Counted from the first letter of the stretch, positions 20,188-61,822 are shown. The stretch: DNA of 64,000 nt from an uncultured Phycisphaerae bacterium (GCA_947085435.1 CAMTWL010000031.1:76278-140277), one strand, 5' to 3'. Numbers and translations are program-made. The notes: generated by a model from the sequence alone, not told the origin.

Positions 20188-20270
20188 GTGGCACGCCCTT
20201 TCCAGGGCGTGGAGCCAGCCGACACGGGCTGGTCTCCGCGGCGACTCTTCGAGAAAGCCCGTGCCACTTC
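20188..20270. repeat. family-C palindromic element (GTGGCACG...GTCTCCGCGGCGAC...CCGTGCCAC)
   Basis: gtggcacgccctttccagggcgtgg...cacgggctggtctccgcggcgactcttcgagaaagcccgtgccac. Copies at 36213, 41052, 43613, 48132 and 61761, with fragments at 22381, 29052, 36935 and 55717. Confidence 0.8.
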
Positions 20271-36212: not shown

Positions 36213-36285
36213 ACGTGGCACGCCCTTTCCAGGGCGTGGGGGCTAACCGACACGGGCTGGAAAGCCCGTGCCACTTCAAACTGGG
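36213..36285. repeat. family-C palindromic element
   Basis: gtggcacgccctttccagggcgtgggggctaaccgacacgggctggaaagcccgtgccacttcaaactggg. Confidence 0.8.
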
Positions 36286-37286: not shown

Positions 37287-40200
37287 TCAGAGGCAGTTGG
37301 TGTTGAAGTTCGCCAGCGTGGTGGTGATGTCGTTGAAGTCAACATCGCCGTCGTCGTCGGTGTCGCCGAGGCCCGTGCCGGGCGTGGGGAGGTAGTTGTT
37401 GCCGAAGTTGGCGAGGGTCGTGGTGATGTCGTTGAAGTCGACGTCGAGGTCATCGTCGGCGTCGCCCGGGCACAGCGGCGGGGCGGTGGGCCGGACCACG
37501 CCGTTGATCTTCACGTCGTCGATGTTCCAGCCGTGAAGGACGACCGAGCCGTCGGTTGTCCCCAGGTACCAGCGCAGGTAGACGGTCGGCTGGTTGTCCG
37601 CGACGGCGGAGATGTCGAAGGTGTGGAAGGACCAGGCGGTCTCGTTGAGGGTCGATCCGGCGTGGGCATAGAGGGTCGTCCACGTCGTGCCGTTGTTGGA
37701 GATTTCGATGCCCGCGCGGTCGAAGACGGCGCTCTCGATGCCGAGCCATCGGCGGTAGTCCATGCTGGTGAAGTACTTTCCGGTGAGGTCGATGGCGGGG
37801 GTCGTGGCGTTGATGCGCGGGAGGTTGTTGGTGTAGTCGCCCGCGAGGTTGTAGCCGACGACGTTGGTGCCCGTGAATCCGGCGGCGGGGTCGCCGCTGA
37901 GTCCCTGGGGAACGCCGTAGGCCCAGCCCGCGCCGAGCGTCCAGCCCGGATTGGTGTCCATGTTCCAGTTCACGATGACCTGCGGGGTTCCCACCCTGAC
38001 GGTGACGGTGGCGGTGCCCGAGTCGGTGAAGTCGTTGCACTTGTAGGTGAAGGAATCGGGGCCGACGTAGAGGGCGTTGGGCTTGTAGTTCGCGACCGCG
38101 CCGCCCGAGAGGAGGACATAGGGGACGGCGCTGATGATCCCGCCGTTGGGATCGCGGACGGTTCCGTTGGCCGGGAGCGAGAGGATGGTGTAGGTGAGGG
38201 GCGAGTTAGTAGTCGAGACGCCCTGGAGCGTGATCGGCGAGATGATGGTGTCGGGGACGGTGGCGGCGAAGTTCTTCGCGGTGGGCGGGCATGGGGCACC
38301 GCTCTGGGCGATCTTGAGTTTCCACTGGTCGAGGGTGCCGACGTCCGCGCCCGCGAGGTCTTGGACGCGCATGGTCCAGATTCCCTGCGCTCCCTGGCCG
38401 TTGAAATCGTTGAGCGAGCCGGGGCCGTCGGGGTTGACGACGCCCTGGTCGTAGGTTTTGTGGATGTTGTCGGCGCTGCCTCCGGTGCGGTTGTGGAGGC
38501 GGACGATGGTGCCCGAGGGGGCGGTGAGTTCAACGACGAGGTCGCCGATGAAGGTGTGGGTGAGGTCGAGTTGGACGTCGATGTCCCCGATGCAGAAGGC
38601 GTCGGCGACGTTGAGGGTGCTCGTGATGCCGGGGTTCGGGCTGTCGGGGATGAAGATCGGGGGGCCGCCGTAGGTGTAGGTGTAGCGTCCGACATCGAGG
38701 GTGACGGGGCGTGTGGTGCCGCCGCTGCCGCCCGAATCGTTGGTGAAGTTCACCGTTCCGATAGAGAGGCCCGCGCCGAGGGCGTTGGCGGCGGCGGAGA
38801 ACCCGGCGATGACAACGCGCGCATCGCCCGTTCCCGTAAGGGTGAACGACGAAGAGGCGAGGCCGTCGGCGGCGATCCACGGGGCGCTGCCCGCGACCGT
38901 GACGTTGACGGGTGTGGGCTTGGTGCTGGTGACGATGTAGGCCTGGGTTGCGGAGAAGGGTCCGCCGACGGGTCCGCCGCCGAGGAGGCCGGTCGCAGGC
39001 GTGACCGAGATTCCGGTGGTTCCGGCGTCGATGGAGTGATTGCGGGTGAACGGGATGCCGTTGGTCGTGTCCTGGAAGAGGACGGTGGTGAGGTAGAAGC
39101 CGGCGGGGAGCGACGAGGCCGAGGCATCAACCGCGATCGTGACCATCGTCGAGGTCATGCCGGCGAGCGTGCCCATCACGGGGCCTGCGCCGCCGTTCAT
39201 GGTGAGCGGGGCCGTGCCGCCGGGGACGAAGGAGACGCTGTAGTTGACGGGGGTGGGTGTGCTGTTGTTGAGGACATAGATGACGGAAGAAGGCGAGAAG
39301 GGACCGCCGAGAAGGCCGAGGTGGTTGGTGTCGCCGGCGGGGGCGACGTCGAGGCCCTTGCCGAGGGTGTCGACGAACATGGCACCGGTGCTGGTGGGGT
39401 CGAGCCAGTCGGAGAGTCGGGTGGCGGATGTGCCGCCGCCGATCCACGATCGGCTGACCCGGCCGTAGCAGTCCGAACGGTTTGCGCCGGTCTGCGAGCA
39501 GGCCGAAGGCCCGCCGTGGAGTTGTCCGATGATGCGTTGGTTGTTGTCGTAGAGGGGCGAGCCTGACGAGCCGGGCTCGGTGACGCCGAGCGACCAGTAA
39601 ACGCTGATGTGTGAGTTATCGCCGGGGCCGGGGGCGGCGCTGCAGCCCCACGATGAGCCGTGCGACGGCGCGAAGGAGCCGCCGAAGGTGTCGTAGAAGG
39701 AGATTCTTTTTTCGGCGACCTGCGGGTGATGGATGGCCGCGCCGCTGGCGGGGTTCAGCCCCTCGCGGCTCCAGCCCGCGAAGGTGACGCCCCACGCCGC
39801 GTTCGGCGCGGTGTTCACCTGCACGAGGCAGAAGTCGGAGACGGCGACCGCGGCGCGGAACGTCGCGCCGGAAGAGAACTGCGCGAGCGAGCCGTCGCCC
39901 GCGCCGCCGCTGTCGCCCGAGCCGGGGATGCGGCAGTAGGAGTTCTGGAAGTTCCAGTAGATGACCATGGTGCCCGCGTCGCCCGCGTCGATGCCGCAGT
40001 GGTTGGCGGTCAGGAAGTAAGGCGTCCGGTTGTTCGACGTGTTGTTGACCATCGAGCCGGAGCAGGTGTCCGAGCCGTTGAGCGTGTACGCGCCCGCGGC
40101 GTCGATCTCGTCCGCCCAGGGGTTGCCTTCCGGGCATTCGACATCGACGTTGCACGAGCCGGAGGTGCCGCGCTCATCGTCGGGTGCGGCGCTCGAACCA

Positions 40201-40802
40201 AATCGACGGAATCCCGAGCCGATCTGTCCCAGGCGCAGGCGCATCTCGGCGATCCGCTTCTCGGGGATCAGCACCTCGATGACGACCTCGTCCGAGTTCA
40301 GGATGGGAGTCCAGAGTTGGCTCGCCGGGGTGTTGTCGGCGGAGGTGAAGGGGCGGATGACCTCCGCGCCGTCGGGCGTCAGGATGGTCATCGACGCGCC
40401 GGGAGGCATGTGATAGTCGGTGAAGCCGAGGTTGATCGAGAGCGCGCCGTCCGAGCCGACGCGGAGGCGCCACATGTGGGTGCCGTCTTTCAGAACTTCC
40501 CAGGTGCCGGCGTTCTCGGGCGAGTAGTTGACGCGGACGGGGATCGCAAAGCGCAGGGGGAGGCCGACCTCGACATTGCGGTTGGATTGCTCCATCGCGG
40601 CGGCGAAGTCGAGTTCGTCGGTCTGCACCTTGTCCACGTCCTTGAGCCCCCGGACATCCTCCGAGAGCGACATCGGGCGCGCTTCGGGGCTGACGCCGAC
40701 GGAGGCATACGGCTGCTCCGCCCAGGTCACGCCCGACAGCAAGGCCACCACCGCTGCGGATGAGCACACGCGGCGCCACGCACGAGAAACACTTTGCATC
40801 AC
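37287..40802 (-). CDS. secreted multidomain serine endopeptidase: trypsin-like S1 domain plus proprotein-convertase P-domain, with two C-terminal dockerin-like repeats
   Basis: 1171 aa with a signal peptide. The catalytic-His motif LTANHCG and catalytic-Ser motif EPGSSGSPLYD of lysyl-endopeptidase-like S1 peptidases. P-domain (FIGDLVVELTAPSGT...WTMRVQD). C-terminal DxDVDFNDITTTLANF repeated twice. Confidence 0.8.
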   Translation of the reverse strand: MMQSVSRAWRRVCSSAAVVALLSGVTWAEQPYASVGVSPEARPMSLSEDVRGLKDVDKVQTDELDFAAAMEQSNRNVEVGLPLRFAIPVRVNYSPENAGTWEVLKDGTHMWRLRVGSDGALSINLGFTDYHMPPGASMTILTPDGAEVIRPFTSADNTPASQLWTPILNSDEVVIEVLIPEKRIAEMRLRLGQIGSGFRRFGSSAAPDDERGTSGSCNVDVECPEGNPWADEIDAAGAYTLNGSDTCSGSMVNNTSNNRTPYFLTANHCGIDAGDAGTMVIYWNFQNSYCRIPGSGDSGGAGDGSLAQFSSGATFRAAVAVSDFCLVQVNTAPNAAWGVTFAGWSREGLNPASGAAIHHPQVAEKRISFYDTFGGSFAPSHGSSWGCSAAPGPGDNSHISVYWSLGVTEPGSSGSPLYDNNQRIIGQLHGGPSACSQTGANRSDCYGRVSRSWIGGGTSATRLSDWLDPTSTGAMFVDTLGKGLDVAPAGDTNHLGLLGGPFSPSSVIYVLNNSTPTPVNYSVSFVPGGTAPLTMNGGAGPVMGTLAGMTSTMVTIAVDASASSLPAGFYLTTVLFQDTTNGIPFTRNHSIDAGTTGISVTPATGLLGGGPVGGPFSATQAYIVTSTKPTPVNVTVAGSAPWIAADGLASSSFTLTGTGDARVVIAGFSAAANALGAGLSIGTVNFTNDSGGSGGTTRPVTLDVGRYTYTYGGPPIFIPDSPNPGITSTLNVADAFCIGDIDVQLDLTHTFIGDLVVELTAPSGTIVRLHNRTGGSADNIHKTYDQGVVNPDGPGSLNDFNGQGAQGIWTMRVQDLAGADVGTLDQWKLKIAQSGAPCPPTAKNFAATVPDTIISPITLQGVSTTNSPLTYTILSLPANGTVRDPNGGIISAVPYVLLSGGAVANYKPNALYVGPDSFTYKCNDFTDSGTATVTVRVGTPQVIVNWNMDTNPGWTLGAGWAYGVPQGLSGDPAAGFTGTNVVGYNLAGDYTNNLPRINATTPAIDLTGKYFTSMDYRRWLGIESAVFDRAGIEISNNGTTWTTLYAHAGSTLNETAWSFHTFDISAVADNQPTVYLRWYLGTTDGSVVLHGWNIDDVKINGVVRPTAPPLCPGDADDDLDVDFNDITTTLANFGNNYLPTPGTGLGDTDDDGDVDFNDITTTLANFNTNCL

Positions 40803-41051
40803 ATCAATCTCCCGGTCGAGCGCGGCGTGCCCGGGGTGAACAACACCCCAAGCCCGGCCCGACCCGTTCCAAAATAAATCCCTTCCTCAAGGCAGCCAGA
40901 CCGCCCGTCCGCCTTCCGTCCGGTGTTCAGTATGCAGCGGATTGGCCGATATGCAACGGCGGAAAGGCCGGATAGCGGTCGAAACTCAACTTTTTTGACC
41001 CAATTTCGGGCGGAGGTCGTCACCCAGTGTCAGCCCCGGTCGCATTTTTGG

Positions 41052-41168
41052 TGGTGTCTCAGTTTGGAGTGGCACGGGCTTTCTCGGAGAGTCGCCGCGG
41101 AGACCAGACCGTGTCGGCTCGCCTCACGGTCGCCGCGGCGACCGTGCCACATTCAAACTGAGAAACCA
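41052..41168. repeat. family-C element with TIR-like ends GGTGTCTCAGTTTGGAGTGGCAC / GTGCCACATTCAAACTGAGAAACC
   Basis: Read directly. The internal palindrome core is GAGAGTCGCCGCGGAG...GTCGCCGCGGCGACC. Confidence 0.8.
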
Positions 41169-41300
41169 CCTGCGCCGACGCGTGCTTCTCCGCCCAGGCC
41201 AATGGTTATGGGCCGCCCCCGCGATCTCCAGAGCGAACCGGAGCCGGAGAGGGCGACCGCTCCGGCCCCCCGGGGGCACCGGGGCGCTGCGCGATGGCGA

Positions 41301-41522: not shown

Positions 41523-42290
41523 TCAGTCCGGAAGAAGCAGATCGTCCTCTTCCTCGCTGAAGAACCGCAGGTGCGTGTCGAGGGTGTGCGGCGTGACGCT
41601 TGTGCCGTCGCGGATTTCGTCGGCTCCTTCGCCGTCGCCGTTCTCGCCGTATTCGTTGTGGTGATAGATGTTCGGATCGCTCTGATCGGCGACCGATCGT
41701 GTTTTCCAGAAGAGGGCGTGGCCGTCGGTCCAGGCGAGGCACTGGCCGAGGCCGTTCCACGCGGCGGACATGGTCTTTCCATCGGAGTAGTTGGCGCGGT
41801 CGCCCATGAAGACGCGGGCGCGGGTGCTCCGATCGCGCTTCGGATCGTTGTCGTAGGAGAACGAGCAGTGCCACATGACGGAGGCGATGTTCTGGGGGCC
41901 GATCTCGGTTTCCGGATGCACTTCCTGTTCGAGGAGGCGCACGAGCAGCGGCCGCCCTTTGGAGTCGAAGAACTTTGACGGCTCATCGGTGGTGGCGGGG
42001 TTGACGAATGCATCGCTCGGGACATCGTTGTATTTGGCGAGAACGCTCAGGCCCAGCACGGCCTTCTCCTCGGGATCGTCGCGCACGGGCGGCACGCCGC
42101 GGAAGTCGTTCGCGTAGGCCTGCACGCCGACGCTCAGGTCGCGGAGATTCGAGAGCGTGGCGGTGATGCGGGCGGAGAGGCGCGCGCGGCCGAGTGCGGG
42201 GAGCAGGACGGCGATGAGGATGGCGATGATCGCGATGACGACGAGGAGTTCGATGAGGGTGAACCCGCGTCCGCGCCGATCGGATTCCAT
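41523..42290 (-). CDS. DUF1559/prepilin-type N-terminal cleavage-methylation domain protein (pseudopilin-like, planctomycete-type)
   Basis: 255 aa from ATG 42290, starting [34 protein letters not shown]-terminal DGH...DG region. Confidence 0.75.
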   Translation of the reverse strand: MESDRRGRGFTLIELLVVIAIIAILIAVLLPALGRARLSARITATLSNLRDLSVGVQAYANDFRGVPPVRDDPEEKAVLGLSVLAKYNDVPSDAFVNPATTDEPSKFFDSKGRPLLVRLLEQEVHPETEIGPQNIASVMWHCSFSYDNDPKRDRSTRARVFMGDRANYSDGKTMSAAWNGLGQCLAWTDGHALFWKTRSVADQSDPNIYHHNEYGENGDGEGADEIRDGTSVTPHTLDTHLRFFSEEEDDLLLPD

Positions 42291-42412
42291 GCGGCGGCCG
42301 CTTGTGACACCGATTGGTACATGCAACATGAGTGCATTATTGGCCCCGGCGGATCGTCTGTCAACCCGAGGCCGCGAGAGAGGCCGTTACAATCATCGGG
42401 CCGGTAGGATGA

Positions 42413-43537
<1,125 letters not shown>

Positions 43538-43606
43538 ACTTCGGCGGAGCTGCGGCGTTTTGGCGGCAGTCGATCGGCGGACCAGGTTGGCGCACAACTT
43601 TGAGTG

Positions 43607-43734
43607 GTTGACGTGGCACGGGCTTTCCAGCCCGTGTCTTCGGTGGTACGGGCTTTCTCGGAGAGTCGCCGCGGCGACCGTGACGCGGGGGACACGGGCT
43701 AGAAAGCCCGTGCCACATTCAAACTGAGACACCA
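43607..43734. repeat. family-C element flanked by 14-bp direct repeats CACAACTTTGAGTG
   Basis: Direct repeats at 43593-43606 and 43735-43748. The internal sequence is gtggcacgggctttccagcccgtg...gagagtcgccgcggcgaccg...gtgccacattcaaactgagacac. Confidence 0.8.
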
Positions 43735-43811
43735 CACAACTTTGAGTGTTCGGGTCTTGGTGAACACGATTTTCATCTATTCGCAAATATTTTCTGAAAA
43801 TGACTTGACAG

Positions 43812-43839
43812 CCCCCCCCCCCCCCGGGGTAGGGGGGGG
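43812..43839. repeat. homopolymeric C14-GGGG-TA-G8 tract immediately downstream of a perfect TTGACA -35 hexamer
   Basis: ttgaca g cccccccccccccc gggg ta gggggggg c atagaaaggag, with ATG at 43858. Confidence 0.85.
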
Positions 43840-43857
43840 CATAGAAAGGAGACTTTC

Positions 43858-44172
43858 ATGAACAAGTCTCAGTCTTCAGCGTGGTTGTTCTCGCGTGGGT
43901 TGCCGGCGGCGGTCGTCGTCTTCTCGGTGGGTTCGATGGGCATGTCGCTGTCGAGCGATCCCTTCATGCCGGTGGACGAGGTGGTGGCAGCCGATGACTG
44001 CTCTTTCTGCTTCACGGAGGGTGAGTTCACCGCGTGCCACACGAAGACCGGCGGGTGCGCGTCGAACGAAGTCTGCAGCGGCACGGGCGGACGGCTTCCC
44101 AATGGAATGCCTTGGGCTGAGGCGAGATGCGTTCCCAGGCCGACTGAACACATGCCCGTCGTCGGGGGTTAG
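43858..44172 (+). CDS. small secreted Cys-rich protein (6 Cys), unknown function
   Basis: 104 aa, AAAGGAG SD, N-terminal hydrophobic signal. Cys/Ser/Thr/Gly-rich core DDCSFCFTEGEFTACHTKTGGCASNEVCSGTGG. Confidence 0.5.
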   Translation: MNKSQSSAWLFSRGLPAAVVVFSVGSMGMSLSSDPFMPVDEVVAADDCSFCFTEGEFTACHTKTGGCASNEVCSGTGGRLPNGMPWAEARCVPRPTEHMPVVGG

Positions 44173-44256
44173 ACGGTGTGTGCGCGAGCCCCTTCTCGCG
44201 AGCGATCCGCATCGAAGGTTGCGCGCTGCTCACTCGAATCATCCTCGGAGCATTTG

Positions 44257-45027
44257 ATGAAAGCCAAGGGCAGGCTGACAGCGATCATCGTTGGCATATG
44301 CGTGGTCGGAGCGGTTTATTACTTTCTCCGCGGACGAGCGGCCGTGCCCTCCCCCGTTGCGCACGCTCCGACACCGGGCGTCGAAACACATCTTCTCGGT
44401 TCCGCCAACATCATCGAGCCGTACGATGAGCAGGAGGTTCCCGACCTCGTTTTGCAGTTCCGAGTCTCCTGCCTCGCGTCCTGCCGAGACCTGATCGGCG
44501 AGGCTCGGCTCGACAGCGCTTCGATGGAATCCTTCTGCGACGCCGCTTCGGAACGCCTCCGTCTGTATCTGGCCCCTTCCTATGATGCCTACCGAGAGTA
44601 TGTCAAGCGCCTGACGGGGCGCGATCCGGAAGGCTCGGGCGCGACGAATATCTTCTCCAAGCGGGGGGACTTCGAGGGGATGACGAGCGGCATGAGGCTG
44701 CTGCCGTTCGACCCCGCGAGCGTTCATGTCCGGGCGGTCTTCATCGGAGGCCGCTCCGTCGCTCCGCTGACCGCCGACGCGTCGTACACCCCTGATTCCG
44801 GCCTTTTTTTCAGCGCCGTCGGTCAGGAGCCCAAGAAGGCCCGGGCCACGATCTATGAAGTTCTCGTTCCGGTGGAAGCACGCGATCCGTTCCATCCCGA
44901 CACTCGGTTTTCACTCGTCCTCGGCATGGCCTTTGTCCGCGAGTTGGACGGGCGGTGGAAGCCATGGCAGATGTCGTTCCACGATCCGAGCGGCGTGAAG
45001 CGGATCACTGGTTCGCCCTGGCTGTGA
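44257..45027 (+). CDS. N-terminally membrane-anchored hypothetical protein
   Basis: 256 aa from ATG 44257. LTAIIVGICVVGAVYYFL single TM. No family. Confidence 0.45.
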   Translation: MKAKGRLTAIIVGICVVGAVYYFLRGRAAVPSPVAHAPTPGVETHLLGSANIIEPYDEQEVPDLVLQFRVSCLASCRDLIGEARLDSASMESFCDAASERLRLYLAPSYDAYREYVKRLTGRDPEGSGATNIFSKRGDFEGMTSGMRLLPFDPASVHVRAVFIGGRSVAPLTADASYTPDSGLFFSAVGQEPKKARATIYEVLVPVEARDPFHPDTRFSLVLGMAFVRELDGRWKPWQMSFHDPSGVKRITGSPWL

Positions 45028-45057
45028 CCGGAGGGGATCATGAAGCACGCGCTCCCT

Positions 45058-45301
45058 GTAACTCTTCAGCGGAATGCAACGACCGTTTCTCCAAACGGGC
45101 CTGTGGTGTTTGGTTCCGATCGAGTGGCACCCCTTCGGGGTTCGGAAGAGGGTGCGTGGGGTTGCTTTCCGGGGGTGTCGCGGACTCCACCCCCGGCTAC
45201 TGTAGACCAGCCCTTCGGGCTGAAAACAAAGGCATTTCAAGAGCGCACGAACCTCGGGTCGCCGCAGCGACTCGTAGATTTGCAACCGGCTGAAGAGTTA
45301 C
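45058..45301. mobile_element. full-length MITE (244 bp, TIR GTAACTCTTCAGCGG...CCGGCTGAAGAGTTAC)
   Basis: Colinear with 34057-34294, and inverted relative to the copy at 54811-55032. Flanks cgctccct | ... | ctctccct (7/8 TSD). Confidence 0.8.
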
Positions 45302-45309
45302 CTCTCCCT

Positions 45310-46231
<922 letters not shown>

Positions 46232-46239
46232 TCTGAGGT

Positions 46240-46310
46240 ATTCACCACGGAGTCAAAGATCCGCCGCGGCGGGGCACGGAGAGCACGGAGTAATACAGAT
46301 CACACTTCGA
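46240..46310. repeat. family-A arm (solo)
   Basis: ggtattcaccacggagtcaaagatccgccgcggcggggcacggagagcacggag. Confidence 0.6.
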
Positions 46311-46324
46311 CCCCGCGCGAGGTC

Positions 46325-46412
46325 GTGATCGGAGCGTCGGTAGCCGACGCCCCCTCCGCCCTCGAAGACTCGGGCACCTCCCCCGCTGGGAGCGGGGGAG
46401 GAGGCTCAGACA
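46325..46412. repeat. direct repeat copy 1 (about 90 bp, with CTCCCCCGC-tggga-GCGGGGGAG hairpin) upstream of the flotillin gene
   Basis: cgtcggtagccgacgccccctccgccctcgaagactcgggcacctcccccgctgggagcgggggaggaggctcagacaccgcgcgagg, with a second copy at 48257-48360. Confidence 0.8.
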
Positions 46413-46484
46413 CCGCGCGAGGAACAACTGGGATTCGTGTAAGATGGTGAGGTTCAGTTCTCCGGCGGGGAAAGGGGCTTGGCC

Positions 46485-48116
46485 ATGGGCTATATCTCGA
46501 TTGTCATCGGCGCGTTGGTCGCGGGGGCGCTGCTCAGCACTGTTCAGCGGCTCCCGACCTCGAGCGCCCGCGGGGCCGTCGCGGGGTTGTCTCTCCTTGT
46601 CTTTGCGCTCGGCGTGCTTCTCTCGTCGATCCGCTACGTTCCCGACGATCGAATGGGGGTGGTCAGCAAGAACGCGCTCGGGCCGCAACTTCCGCCCGAG
46701 AAGATCATCGCGACGTCGGGCGAGATGGGGCCTCAGGCGCGGGTTCTCCCGCCGGGCTGGCACCTCTGGTACTGGCCCGTCATCTTCGACATCGAGACCC
46801 ACTCGGTCACCGTGATCGACGCGGGGCAACTGGGCCTCATCAAGACAAGCGACGGCCTGCCGCTCCCGGAGGGGCAGATTTACGCGCCGGAATGGGACCC
46901 CGCGACGTTCCAGCAGATGCTTGATGCGCAGCATTTTCTGACGGCGGGGAAGGGGTTCAAGGGCCCGCAGGCCGCCGTCCTGACGCCCGGAACCTACCGC
47001 CTCAACCCCAGACTGTACGAGATCAAGAAGGTCCCGGTGACGAATATCTCCCCCGCGAGCGTGGGGGTGGTCAAGGCGAACGTAGGAGAGACGCCGCCGG
47101 CGGATCGTCAGGGGCACGGGCTGCTGGTGGACAAGGGGCAGCGGGGGGTGTGGCGCGAGCCGTTGTCGCCGCAGCAGTACTACCTCAACAGCGAGGCGTA
47201 CGAGGTGACGGTGATCTCGACGAAGGCGCACGTCGTTGAATACACGGCCCAGCGCGGCCCGGCGAACCAGCGCGAGATGGGCGGCGAGATCGGCGAACGC
47301 GAGATACAGGTCCGTTCCGCCGACGGGTTCACCTTCCCCGTGGACGTGCGGGTCGAGTACCTGATCGACACGCAGAACGCGCCGCTGGTGGTGGCGACGC
47401 TGAAGGACGATCAGGATTCGTTGCAGCAGGTGCTGAACTCCGCAGTGCGCGCGATCTTCCGCAACTCGGCGGAGCGCGTGAAGGCCCTCGACTATGTGCA
47501 GCAGCGGTCGCAGCAGGAGAAGCAGGCCCTCGAAGCCCTCTCGAAGGAGATGAGCAAGTACGGCGTGACCGTCGCCGCCGTCCGCATCGGCAACATCGGC
47601 GATGAGCAGAGCCTCGGCCTGCTGCTCAAAACCCAGACTGATCGCGAGATCGCGCAGCAGGAGCAGCGGACGTTCCAGGAGCAGCAGAAGGCCGCGGAGC
47701 AGAAGAAGGCGCTGACCCGCACCGTTCAGGAAGCGGAGGAAGAGAAGCGTCTGGCGACGGCCAACTACCAGACCAAGATCGCCGAGCAGGAGAAGATCAG
47801 GAAGATCATCGAGGCGAACGCGGAGGCGGAGTCCATTCTGGTCAAGGCGGAGGCGCAGTCGAAGGCGTTTGCGTCGATCGCGAAGGAGATCGGGCGGAGC
47901 AACTCCGCGTTGCTCGAACTGATGAAGATCGTGGGCGAGCGCGGGATCCAGATCACGCCGAGGGTGATGATCTCGGGGCAGGTGGCCGGGGGGCAATCGC
48001 CGGAGACGGTGGCGCTGATCGGGACGATGCTGGACTCGATGATGGATCGCGCGCCCGCGGACCCGGGGTTGCCGGCGGCGGCGGGGACGGCTCCCGCCGG
48101 GCCGAAGCAACCGTAG
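46485..48116 (+). CDS. SPFH/band-7 flotillin-like protein (YqiK/FloT family)
   Basis: 544 aa. N-terminal TM, SPFH domain, and a long Glu/Gln/Ala/Lys-rich coiled-coil 'flotillin' region. Confidence 0.75.
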   Translation: MGYISIVIGALVAGALLSTVQRLPTSSARGAVAGLSLLVFALGVLLSSIRYVPDDRMGVVSKNALGPQLPPEKIIATSGEMGPQARVLPPGWHLWYWPVIFDIETHSVTVIDAGQLGLIKTSDGLPLPEGQIYAPEWDPATFQQMLDAQHFLTAGKGFKGPQAAVLTPGTYRLNPRLYEIKKVPVTNISPASVGVVKANVGETPPADRQGHGLLVDKGQRGVWREPLSPQQYYLNSEAYEVTVISTKAHVVEYTAQRGPANQREMGGEIGEREIQVRSADGFTFPVDVRVEYLIDTQNAPLVVATLKDDQDSLQQVLNSAVRAIFRNSAERVKALDYVQQRSQQEKQALEALSKEMSKYGVTVAAVRIGNIGDEQSLGLLLKTQTDREIAQQEQRTFQEQQKAAEQKKALTRTVQEAEEEKRLATANYQTKIAEQEKIRKIIEANAEAESILVKAEAQSKAFASIAKEIGRSNSALLELMKIVGERGIQITPRVMISGQVAGGQSPETVALIGTMLDSMMDRAPADPGLPAAAGTAPAGPKQP

Positions 48117-61760: not shown

Positions 61761-61822
61761 CTGGTTCACTTTGACGAAAACCGCACGGGCTAGAAGCCCG
61801 TGCCACCGTCAAAGTGAACCAG
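61761..61822. repeat. palindromic element (CTGGTTCACTTTGACG...CGTCAAAGTGAACCAG with a GCACGGGCT-agaa-GCCCGTGC core)
   Basis: Read directly. Lies in the glmS/rarA divergent region. Confidence 0.8.

Follow-up and report, generated by a model that had tools for sequence, protein, structure and literature searches.

The stretch of DNA considered here, 64,000 nucleotides (nt) in length and called the window as a whole, comes from an uncultured member of the Phycisphaerales (Planctomycetota), whose GAPDH is 81-86% identical to that of Phycisphaerales metagenome-assembled genomes (MAGs). Downstream of the gap gene it carries a block of three genes, which encode a small cysteine-rich protein, a membrane-anchored protein and a prepilin-like protein and which are all intact as open reading frames (ORFs). 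Ahead of the first gene lies a promoter-like region that contains a run of 14 cytosines, C14 (Table 1). We consider it rather probable that C14 is a hypermutable spacer in a sigma-70-type promoter of this three-gene operon, which would thus be a contingency locus that is switched through promoter spacing. Such a promoter would consist of an AT-rich upstream stretch, TTGACA as -35 hexamer, the tract, and a -10 hexamer of the TAnnnT type. Slipped-strand mispairing at replication would add or remove cytosines, the altered number of cytosines would change the distance between the -35 and -10 hexamers, and the transcription of the operon would go up or down with this distance. The switching would be heritable and yet reversible, as is typical of transcriptional phase variation, and the tract length would be expected to fluctuate within populations and to control transcription.

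The local guanine plus cytosine (GC) content around the promoter-like region is 0.56-0.59, compared with 64% for the whole window. A first-pass annotation of this DNA had already proposed phase variation, stating that the C run directly follows a perfect -35 hexamer. The run of 14 is real, but it does not follow directly, as a single G stands between TTGACA and the first C. The order given for the elements after C14, namely GGGG, TA, a run of eight guanines (G8), a Shine-Dalgarno (SD) sequence and the ATG, is confirmed by direct reading. The same annotation had called a homopolymer of this length extremely unusual, and this is borne out: C14 is the longest C run and G8 the longest G run in the 64 kb, all C and G runs of the window other than C14 and G8 have at most 7 nt, and the expectation for C runs of at least 14 nt, with bases taken as independent and identically distributed, is 0.002 per window. 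The hexamer TTGACA alone is not enriched, with 13 copies in the window against 17 expected, and it derives its weight from its conservation at the homologous site in relatives. Two of these relatives, L003 and L005, also have similar AT-rich stretches (AAATATTTT and GAAAAT, respectively) ahead of their TTGAC and TTG, and variants of the SD sequence (AGAAAGGAG, AGAAAGGAAG, CAAAGGAG or AGAGAAAGG) are kept 5' of the start codon in L005, L007, L008, L011 and L003. A promoter located 5' of the tract, with GAAAAT or TATTTT as -10 hexamer, was rejected by eye, as neither is accompanied by a -35 hexamer.

Table 1. Features of the promoter-like region, the three-gene operon and its surroundings in the 64-kb window
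Feature	Position	Strand	Remarks
AT-rich, UP-element-like stretch TTCGCAAATATTTTCTGAAAATGAC	43780-43804	+	5' of the -35-like hexamer; read from the sequence
-35-like hexamer TTGACA	43805-43810	+	homologous place: TTGACA in L003/L004, TTGACT in L008, TTG(CCC) in L005
Single G	43811	+	between TTGACA and the C run
C14 homopolymer	43812-43825	+	putative hypermutable promoter spacer; longest C run of the window
GGGG	43826-43829	+	completes the 19-bp stretch from TTGACA to TA; partner of the C run in the predicted hairpin
TA	43830-43831	+	between GGGG and G8
Degenerate -10-like hexamer TAGGGG	43830-43835	+	22 nt 5' of the ATG, the same distance as TATGGT in L005
G8 homopolymer	43832-43839	+	longest G run of the window; overlaps the -10-like position; complementary to C14
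SD sequence AGAAAGGAG	43843-43851	+	preceded by CAT and followed by ACTTTC; 6 nt from the ATG at 43858
Gene 1	43858-44172	+	104 amino acids (aa); hydrophobic signal-like N-terminus; beta domain of about 50 aa with six conserved Cys
Gene 2	44257-45027	+	256 aa; membrane-anchored by an N-terminal transmembrane (TM) helix; uncharacterised family
Gene 3	45040-46074	+	prepilin-type N-terminal cleavage/methylation motif; PF07963 and TIGR02532 above cut-offs
gap (GAPDH)	42494-43537		
Band_7/SPFH gene	46479-48116		
Left repeat copy (present gap 3' end)	43430-43530	+	GC content at third codon positions (GC3) 0.70; ends ...KDGA*
Right repeat copy (orphaned gap 3' end)	46121-46221	+	GC3 0.89; ends ...KDGVR* as in relatives; frame runs to a stop at 46231
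Cluster of palindromes resembling repetitive extragenic palindromic (REP) elements	43600-43735		between gap and promoter; inverted repeat I1; repeats in common with 41050-41170
REP-like copies	20188-20267, 36215-36274, 41050-41170, 43600-43735, 61792-61806 and others		
Secreted trypsin-like/P-domain protease	37287-40802	-	1171 aa; dockerin-like C-terminal repeats (by eye)
Second prepilin-type protein	41523-42329	-	

The evidence that carries the proposed role of the tract is comparative. Relatives of the operon are present on Logan contigs from other sequencing runs and on one NCBI contig reached by protein look-up, and the comparison is limited to these contigs, because no relatives of gene 2 were found in GTDB representative genomes, JGI metagenome contigs or IMG/VR. 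Relatives of the small protein of the L008 type were likewise not found in JGI metagenome contigs. The independent assemblies have the gene order in common, with a small Cys protein, a member of the 256-aa family and a prepilin-like protein, often followed by Band_7, and the eight homologues of gene 2 are 43-58% identical to it. At the promoter position, the window has TTGACA, a 19-nt spacer (G, C14 and GGGG) and TAGGGG, with C14, G4 and G8 as its runs. In L005 (SRR24472965), TTGCCC is followed by a 22-nt spacer (C15 plus ACGCTGG, with TGG directly ahead of the -10-like hexamer) and by TATGGT 22 nt before the ATG, the tract being C18. L008 (SRR32481249, SRR34348346 and SRR34348347) has TTGACT, a 16-nt spacer (AT, G12 and TA) and GATTAT. 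For two contigs the -35 position lies outside the assembled sequence: L007 (SRR12908307) begins with GAA and has a G14 tract and TAAACT, and L011 begins with GG, which gives a tract of at least G2, and has TAGATTAT. L003 and L004 have no tract, and their TTGACA and TACTCT are separated by an ordinary spacer of 16 nt.

In a consensus scan, the L008 promoter is recognized as TTGACT-16-GATTAT with 9 of 12 matches, and G12 lies wholly within its spacer; a location of the tract between the -35 and -10 hexamers is plausible for L005 and L007. Two lineages have C on the coding strand and three have G, with a constant orientation of the -35 hexamer, the -10 hexamer and the SD sequence. With C14 and G8 in the window and C18, G14 and G12 in the relatives, all these runs have the length of about 8-9 nt or more from which G/C tracts are considered hypermutable. 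In a comparison of lineages, long G/C runs that recur at one and the same promoter site are the mark of a contingency locus, and they favor promoter spacing as its mode of action.

Control DNA of 291 kb, made up of 229 kb from the gap regions of 30 Phycisphaerales genomes and the remaining 62 kb of the window, allows an estimate of how exceptional these runs are. In the 229 kb there is no homopolymer of 9 nt or longer, and in the complete control the G/C runs reach 8 nt at most, a length that occurs six times. Cassette DNA, that is the operon and its relatives, amounts to 18.7 kb and contains seven G/C runs of at least 8 nt (Poisson P = 3e-7 against the control), and four of the seven are at least 12 nt long and all located at the single promoter site.

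Besides its length, the tract of the window has the property that it can pair with the guanines behind it. As RNA, C14 and G4 plus G8 are predicted to form a hairpin of -36 kcal/mol (z = -3.2) that ends 8 nt before the SD sequence. This would permit a fixed regulator, in which C14 and its complementary guanines act as cruciform, i-motif, G-quadruplex or hairpin in the 5' untranslated region (UTR) and, at a constant length, influence transcription, the stability of the mRNA or the access of ribosomes. Ordinary stem-loops just 5' of the SD sequence are also present in L007, L008/L011 and L010, and a 5'-UTR hairpin is therefore recurrent in these leaders. However, no complementary run accompanies the G12, G14 or C18 tracts of the relatives, and the fold of L008 is no better than that of shuffled sequences (z = +0.78). 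The tract is on the G strand in some lineages and on the C strand in others, and in L008 and L007 it lies upstream of the -10-like hexamer, so that it would not be transcribed. A conserved hairpin was rejected, as the tracts of the relatives are not paired by any complementary run. Since the tract consists of G or C depending on the lineage and lacks a partner run, length and not RNA structure is the common property, and we regard a fixed structural regulator as quite improbable. The first-pass annotation had offered hairpin stability as one of two routes by which length changes could act; the fold exists on paper, but it is specific to the window. The whole-window Rfam scan returned no family, and tRNA and tmRNA genes were absent, and therefore the tract belongs neither to a known RNA nor to an island linked to a tRNA gene.

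Phase variation of this type commonly affects products that are secreted or exposed at the surface, although this does not strictly define it. Genes 1 and 2, which had been named as secreted or envelope targets of the switch, are real genes that are conserved in relatives, with a signal-like N-terminus in the former and a TM anchor in the latter. Alignments of the gene 1 family (homologues P0011-P0018) display invariant cysteines and the motif CASNxVCSGxGG...PWAxAxC, and the structure model is confident for a four-strand disulfide-rich domain, with a predicted local distance difference test score (pLDDT) of about 90 over residues 50-95. Gene 1 has no Pfam match, and its match to TIGR04117 is weak and far below the cut-off. 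For gene 2, neither Pfam nor NCBIfam gave a match, and a profile of the family collected 145 representative clusters from 1.84 billion proteins. Its model (pLDDT 82) has the N-terminal TM helix followed by a helical region and then a beta sheet, with weak NTF2-like and VirB8-like resemblances (E at least 0.04). Neither the model of gene 1 nor that of gene 2 matched a PDB structure at E below 0.01. The signal-like N-terminus together with the six-Cys domain of gene 1, the TM anchor of gene 2 and the prepilin motif of gene 3 suggest surface or secreted products, and it is from these signal, TM and prepilin features that we infer an envelope or surface location. The products may form surface structures for which variable expression would be advantageous, for example against phage or grazers.

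Several observations count against a phase-variable promoter, some of them concerning the promoter itself and others the tract. A sigma-70 consensus scan of 43400-46400 gave no promoter, because no acceptable -10 hexamer is found at 16-18 bp after TTGACA. By eye, TAGGGGGGGG of the window can be aligned with TATGGTGGT of L005, in which the interrupted TGGTGG corresponds to G8; it follows from this alignment that G8 occupies the -10 position and that the critical last T is absent. Given its 19-bp spacer and TAGGGG, the allele of the window is predicted to be weak or off, unless bases in this hard-to-sequence stretch have been miscalled. The spacer of L005, with 22 bp, is off-optimal as well, so that, of the three alleles with a tract that can be seen in full, two are predicted to be off. 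Promoter spacing, the other route named by the first-pass annotation, is favored by the tracts of the relatives, while the allele of the window itself has no usable -10 hexamer and a 19-bp spacer. Furthermore, promoters were scored by the sigma-70 consensus, the validity of which for Planctomycetota is an assumption here. The differences in tract length (14, 18, 14, 12 and none) are those between lineages, and literature searches returned no promoter, homopolymer or phase-variation study for Planctomycetota. Gene 3, in addition, carries an in-frame insertion of 84 codons in its leader (45073-45324); it is 42-70% identical to its counterparts in four relatives, which all lack residues 12-95.

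The weak predicted allele and the insertion in gene 3 make a decay of the locus in the window genome a real rival explanation, in which the tract would be a relic and the homopolymers neutral slippage products in an unconstrained promoter of a silent or dying operon. This would account for TAGGGG at a site where relatives have TATGGT, TAGATT/GATTAT, TAAACT or TACTCT, and the non-optimal spacer of L005 and the location of the block on a horizontally acquired insert of lower GC content (see below) would fit as well. On the other hand, the three ORFs are intact, with the insertion in gene 3 being in frame, and the Cys pattern of gene 1 and the sequences of genes 2 and 3 are conserved across lineages. 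The promoter of L008 is compatible with the consensus when the tract is taken as spacer. Uninterrupted runs of 12-18 nt that recur in four lineages and in both orientations, with none elsewhere in the 291 kb of control DNA, are unexpected if the process is neutral. We therefore hold decay to be unlikely. The insertion in gene 3 has a 22-nt inverted repeat at its borders (45058-45079 and 45280-45301) and a REP-like palindrome within, and it looks like an insertion of a miniature inverted-repeat transposable element or a REP element. A TTG at 45280 is a possible internal start that would restore a gene 3 leader of normal length.

The points against a phase-variable promoter that concern the tract itself arise from its assembly. 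The genome was derived from a metagenome and not from a culture, the organisms closest to it by GAPDH are represented by MAGs, and inverted C/G repeats are prone to Illumina errors, so that the bases and run lengths given here may not be exact. A single further assembly of this strain, the Logan contig L001 (ERR3478710, 1313 nt), is 100% identical over 43847-45153 and carries the small protein and gene 2 with sequences identical to those of the window, but it stops 7 nt 3' of G8 and does not reach the tract. Its upstream end is CGATCT (L001 1-6), the reverse complement of which, AGATCG, we take to be the start of Illumina adapter read-through. The end at window position 43847 suggests that sequenced fragments ended there, perhaps by breakage, by a polymerase stop at a C/G structure or by chance. 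A 140-kb NCBI contig also encodes the identical gene 2 protein. Among the relatives, several Logan contigs break at the tract, and in lineages that lack a tract in the promoter the contigs run on for more than 680 nt; such breaks could reflect length heterogeneity and, just as well, a technical failure or a promoter module present in several copies.

In the extreme case, C14-GGGG-TA-G8, in its length or its bases, would be the product of poly-G/poly-C read artefacts or of a chimeric join in the MAG. Yet single unitigs from other runs, L005 and L008, cross the homologous tract with homologous flanks on both sides (AT-rich sequence and TTG(AC) on the 5' side; -10-like hexamer, SD sequence and ATG on the 3' side), and therefore the junction is genuine and a wholesale artefact unlikely. 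The GAA that stands ahead of G14 in L007 is likewise not expected from dark-cycle poly-G at read ends. The suspicion voiced with the first proposal that the tract might be an assembly or homopolymer artefact can thus be set aside for the junction, while it may still apply to the exact length and bases; miscalls in the -10 region, with TAGGGGGGGG in place of a TATGGTGG-like sequence and including T-to-G differences, or in the exact length are possible. As a whole, an artefact appears very improbable to us.

The origin of the block can be read from its borders. Direct repeats of about 101 nt, derived from the 3' end of gap and 92% identical, bracket a block of 2.69 kb with the promoter and the three genes (43427-46117). 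In 11 of 12 comparisons, the right copy is closer than the left one to the gap 3' ends of relatives; the right copy looks ancestral, and the left copy, which now forms the end of gap, would have arrived with the insert. The GC content of the block is lower than that of its flanks. From the gap repeats, the differences between their copies and the lower GC content it follows that the cassette was horizontally acquired, for example by homology-facilitated illegitimate recombination. No integrase or recombinase ORF is present in 43538-46120, and in spite of the direct repeats the insertion is therefore islet-like and cannot be filed as an integrative element. The cassettes in L003, L094 and L002 have no flanking direct repeats, so that the gap-repeat signature is specific to the window genome. 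Neither the cassette nor Band_7 was found 3' of gap in the GAPDH-anchored loci of the 30 Phycisphaerales MAGs.

An insert between direct repeats also raises the question whether the tract could be a recombination or repeat junction, namely the edge of a promoter module that paralogous cassettes exchange or a recombinase recognizes, with the contig breaks resulting from a multi-copy module. The leaders of L008 (1-78), L011 (1-59) and L009 (1-34) are nearly identical (TAGATTATC, then T or G, then GAGCGAGATGTCCTCGCAAAGGAG), while the proteins of the L008 and L011 cassettes are only about 40-50% identical; these two cassettes co-occur in the same sequencing runs, and P0018 looks like a chimera of their small proteins, in which the signal peptide comes from one and the mature part from the other. 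L008 and L011 may thus be paralogous cassettes that exchange modules. For the window, however, the missing recombinase in the block and the lack of a second cassette copy within the 64 kb argue against such a junction, and it would leave a homopolymer of 12-18 nt unexplained. We attach very little probability to this explanation, which in any case would be compatible with phase variation and not opposed to it.

A further tract in the operon family can be followed between samples. The P0017 lineage has no promoter tract and instead contains, three codons ahead of the gene 2 stop, a poly-C run that is C8 in L094 (4495-4502), L096 and L097 (both 1961-1968), three samples that are otherwise identical, and C9 in L095 (1969-1977); the samples are SRR7755065, SRR22250831, SRR29398966 and SRR31912325. 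The C9 strain is about 1% diverged from the C8 samples, and the step from C8 to C9 is the sole indel among 37 differences. With C9, gene 2 has its canonical end at 249 aa, and with C8 a product of 283 aa results that overreads the start of the prepilin-like gene. A third position for G/C runs in the operon family is seen in L002, where C8 (179-186) separates the small gene from the probable true start of gene 2.

The layout proposed for the window has counterparts in well-studied systems. In gonococcal fetA, poly-C is located between the -35 and -10 hexamers and varies from C10 to C14 among strains (PMC5320596). Neisseria fetA/frpB and opc with poly-C and porA with poly-G all have a G/C run of about 10-14 nt in a sigma-70-type spacer ahead of a surface protein gene, and the length of the tract varies by strain and sets the level of transcription. 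L008, with G12 in the spacer of TTGACT-16-GATTAT, has the same layout. In contrast to Neisseria, a host-adapted pathogen with a small genome, the organism here is an uncultured environmental member of the Phycisphaerales with 64% GC, its three products are unrelated to those of Neisseria and uncharacterised, the window has an unrecognizable -10 hexamer and a second, complementary G run, and switching is putative here.

In Bordetella, the promoters of fim2, fim3, fimX and fimN contain C-stretches of 7-22 nt that differ between species, and orthologous tracts include interrupted forms, with 13, 22 or C6TC3 for fim3 and 12, 20 or C9TC8 for fim2 (PMC1891110). The parallels are a high-GC organism, a long poly-C in the promoter of pilus- or fimbria-type genes, and orthologous lengths that differ (C14, C18, G14 and G12 in our case), including an interrupted version, that of the window. 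The Bordetella tract spaces the site of the activator BvgA from the -10 hexamer, whereas the promoters here keep a plain -35 hexamer and have no known activator, and the polarity of the tract, G or C, depends on the lineage. The change at the end of gene 2 in the P0017 lineage resembles C-terminal phase variation, a category described for the gonococcus that includes fusion with the downstream gene (PMC5320596). As in the intragenic homopolymers of Neisseria, Helicobacter and Campylobacter, C8 and C9 switch the C-terminus of gene 2; unlike those, only two alleles occur in four samples, the tract is short (8-9 nt), and gene 2 of the window has no such run. A possible parallel to the leader-sharing L008 and L011 cassettes is provided by Mycoplasma hyorhinis vlp, where each member of the surface-protein family has poly-A in its -35/-10 spacer, with the differences that this is an A/T tract, in a low-GC organism, and that the genes encode lipoproteins.

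Homopolymer-driven phase variation is textbook biology of mucosal pathogens, and to our knowledge few cases exist in environmental lineages. Beyond the role of C14 as a promoter spacer, the broader proposition would be that of a true contingency locus in free-living Planctomycetota, located on a small horizontally mobile cassette, with tracts that arose or were kept repeatedly in the same spacer and elsewhere inside the operon and with stochastic on/off expression of a surface structure; we rate its chances at slightly less than even. If it is true, phase variation by simple sequence repeats would be used also by large-genome environmental bacteria and not only by host-adapted pathogens, with on/off expression of a surface structure serving, for example, as bet-hedging against phage. 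One promoter position that carries C14, C18, G14, G12 or no tract is moreover a cross-lineage example that can be tested on public reads. It points to a likely regulatory logic for three uncharacterised protein families, among them a new six-Cys domain and a membrane family of 145 clusters, and to a variable surface structure, and the tract marks a spot at which short-read assemblies of these genomes systematically break.

In the surroundings of the operon, the REP-like family (GTGGCACGGGCTTTC ... GTCGCCGCGGCGAC) is over-represented in the window, with 10 occurrences against 0.14 expected and 23 against 2. A comparison with the list of ORFs places its copies mostly between ORFs, and the cluster between gap and the promoter is probably the terminator of gap or an insulator. 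According to the ORFs of the window, no regulator gene adjoins the operon. The neighborhood of the block is rich in envelope and secreted proteins, to which the protease and the second prepilin-type protein on the opposite strand belong. Within the operon, a GC-rich stem-loop can be recognized by eye after gene 1 (44173-44256), and in L003 a scan located a terminator-like site behind the small gene at 1049-1079; transcription may be partly terminated here, which would leave gene 1 at a high ratio over genes 2 and 3.

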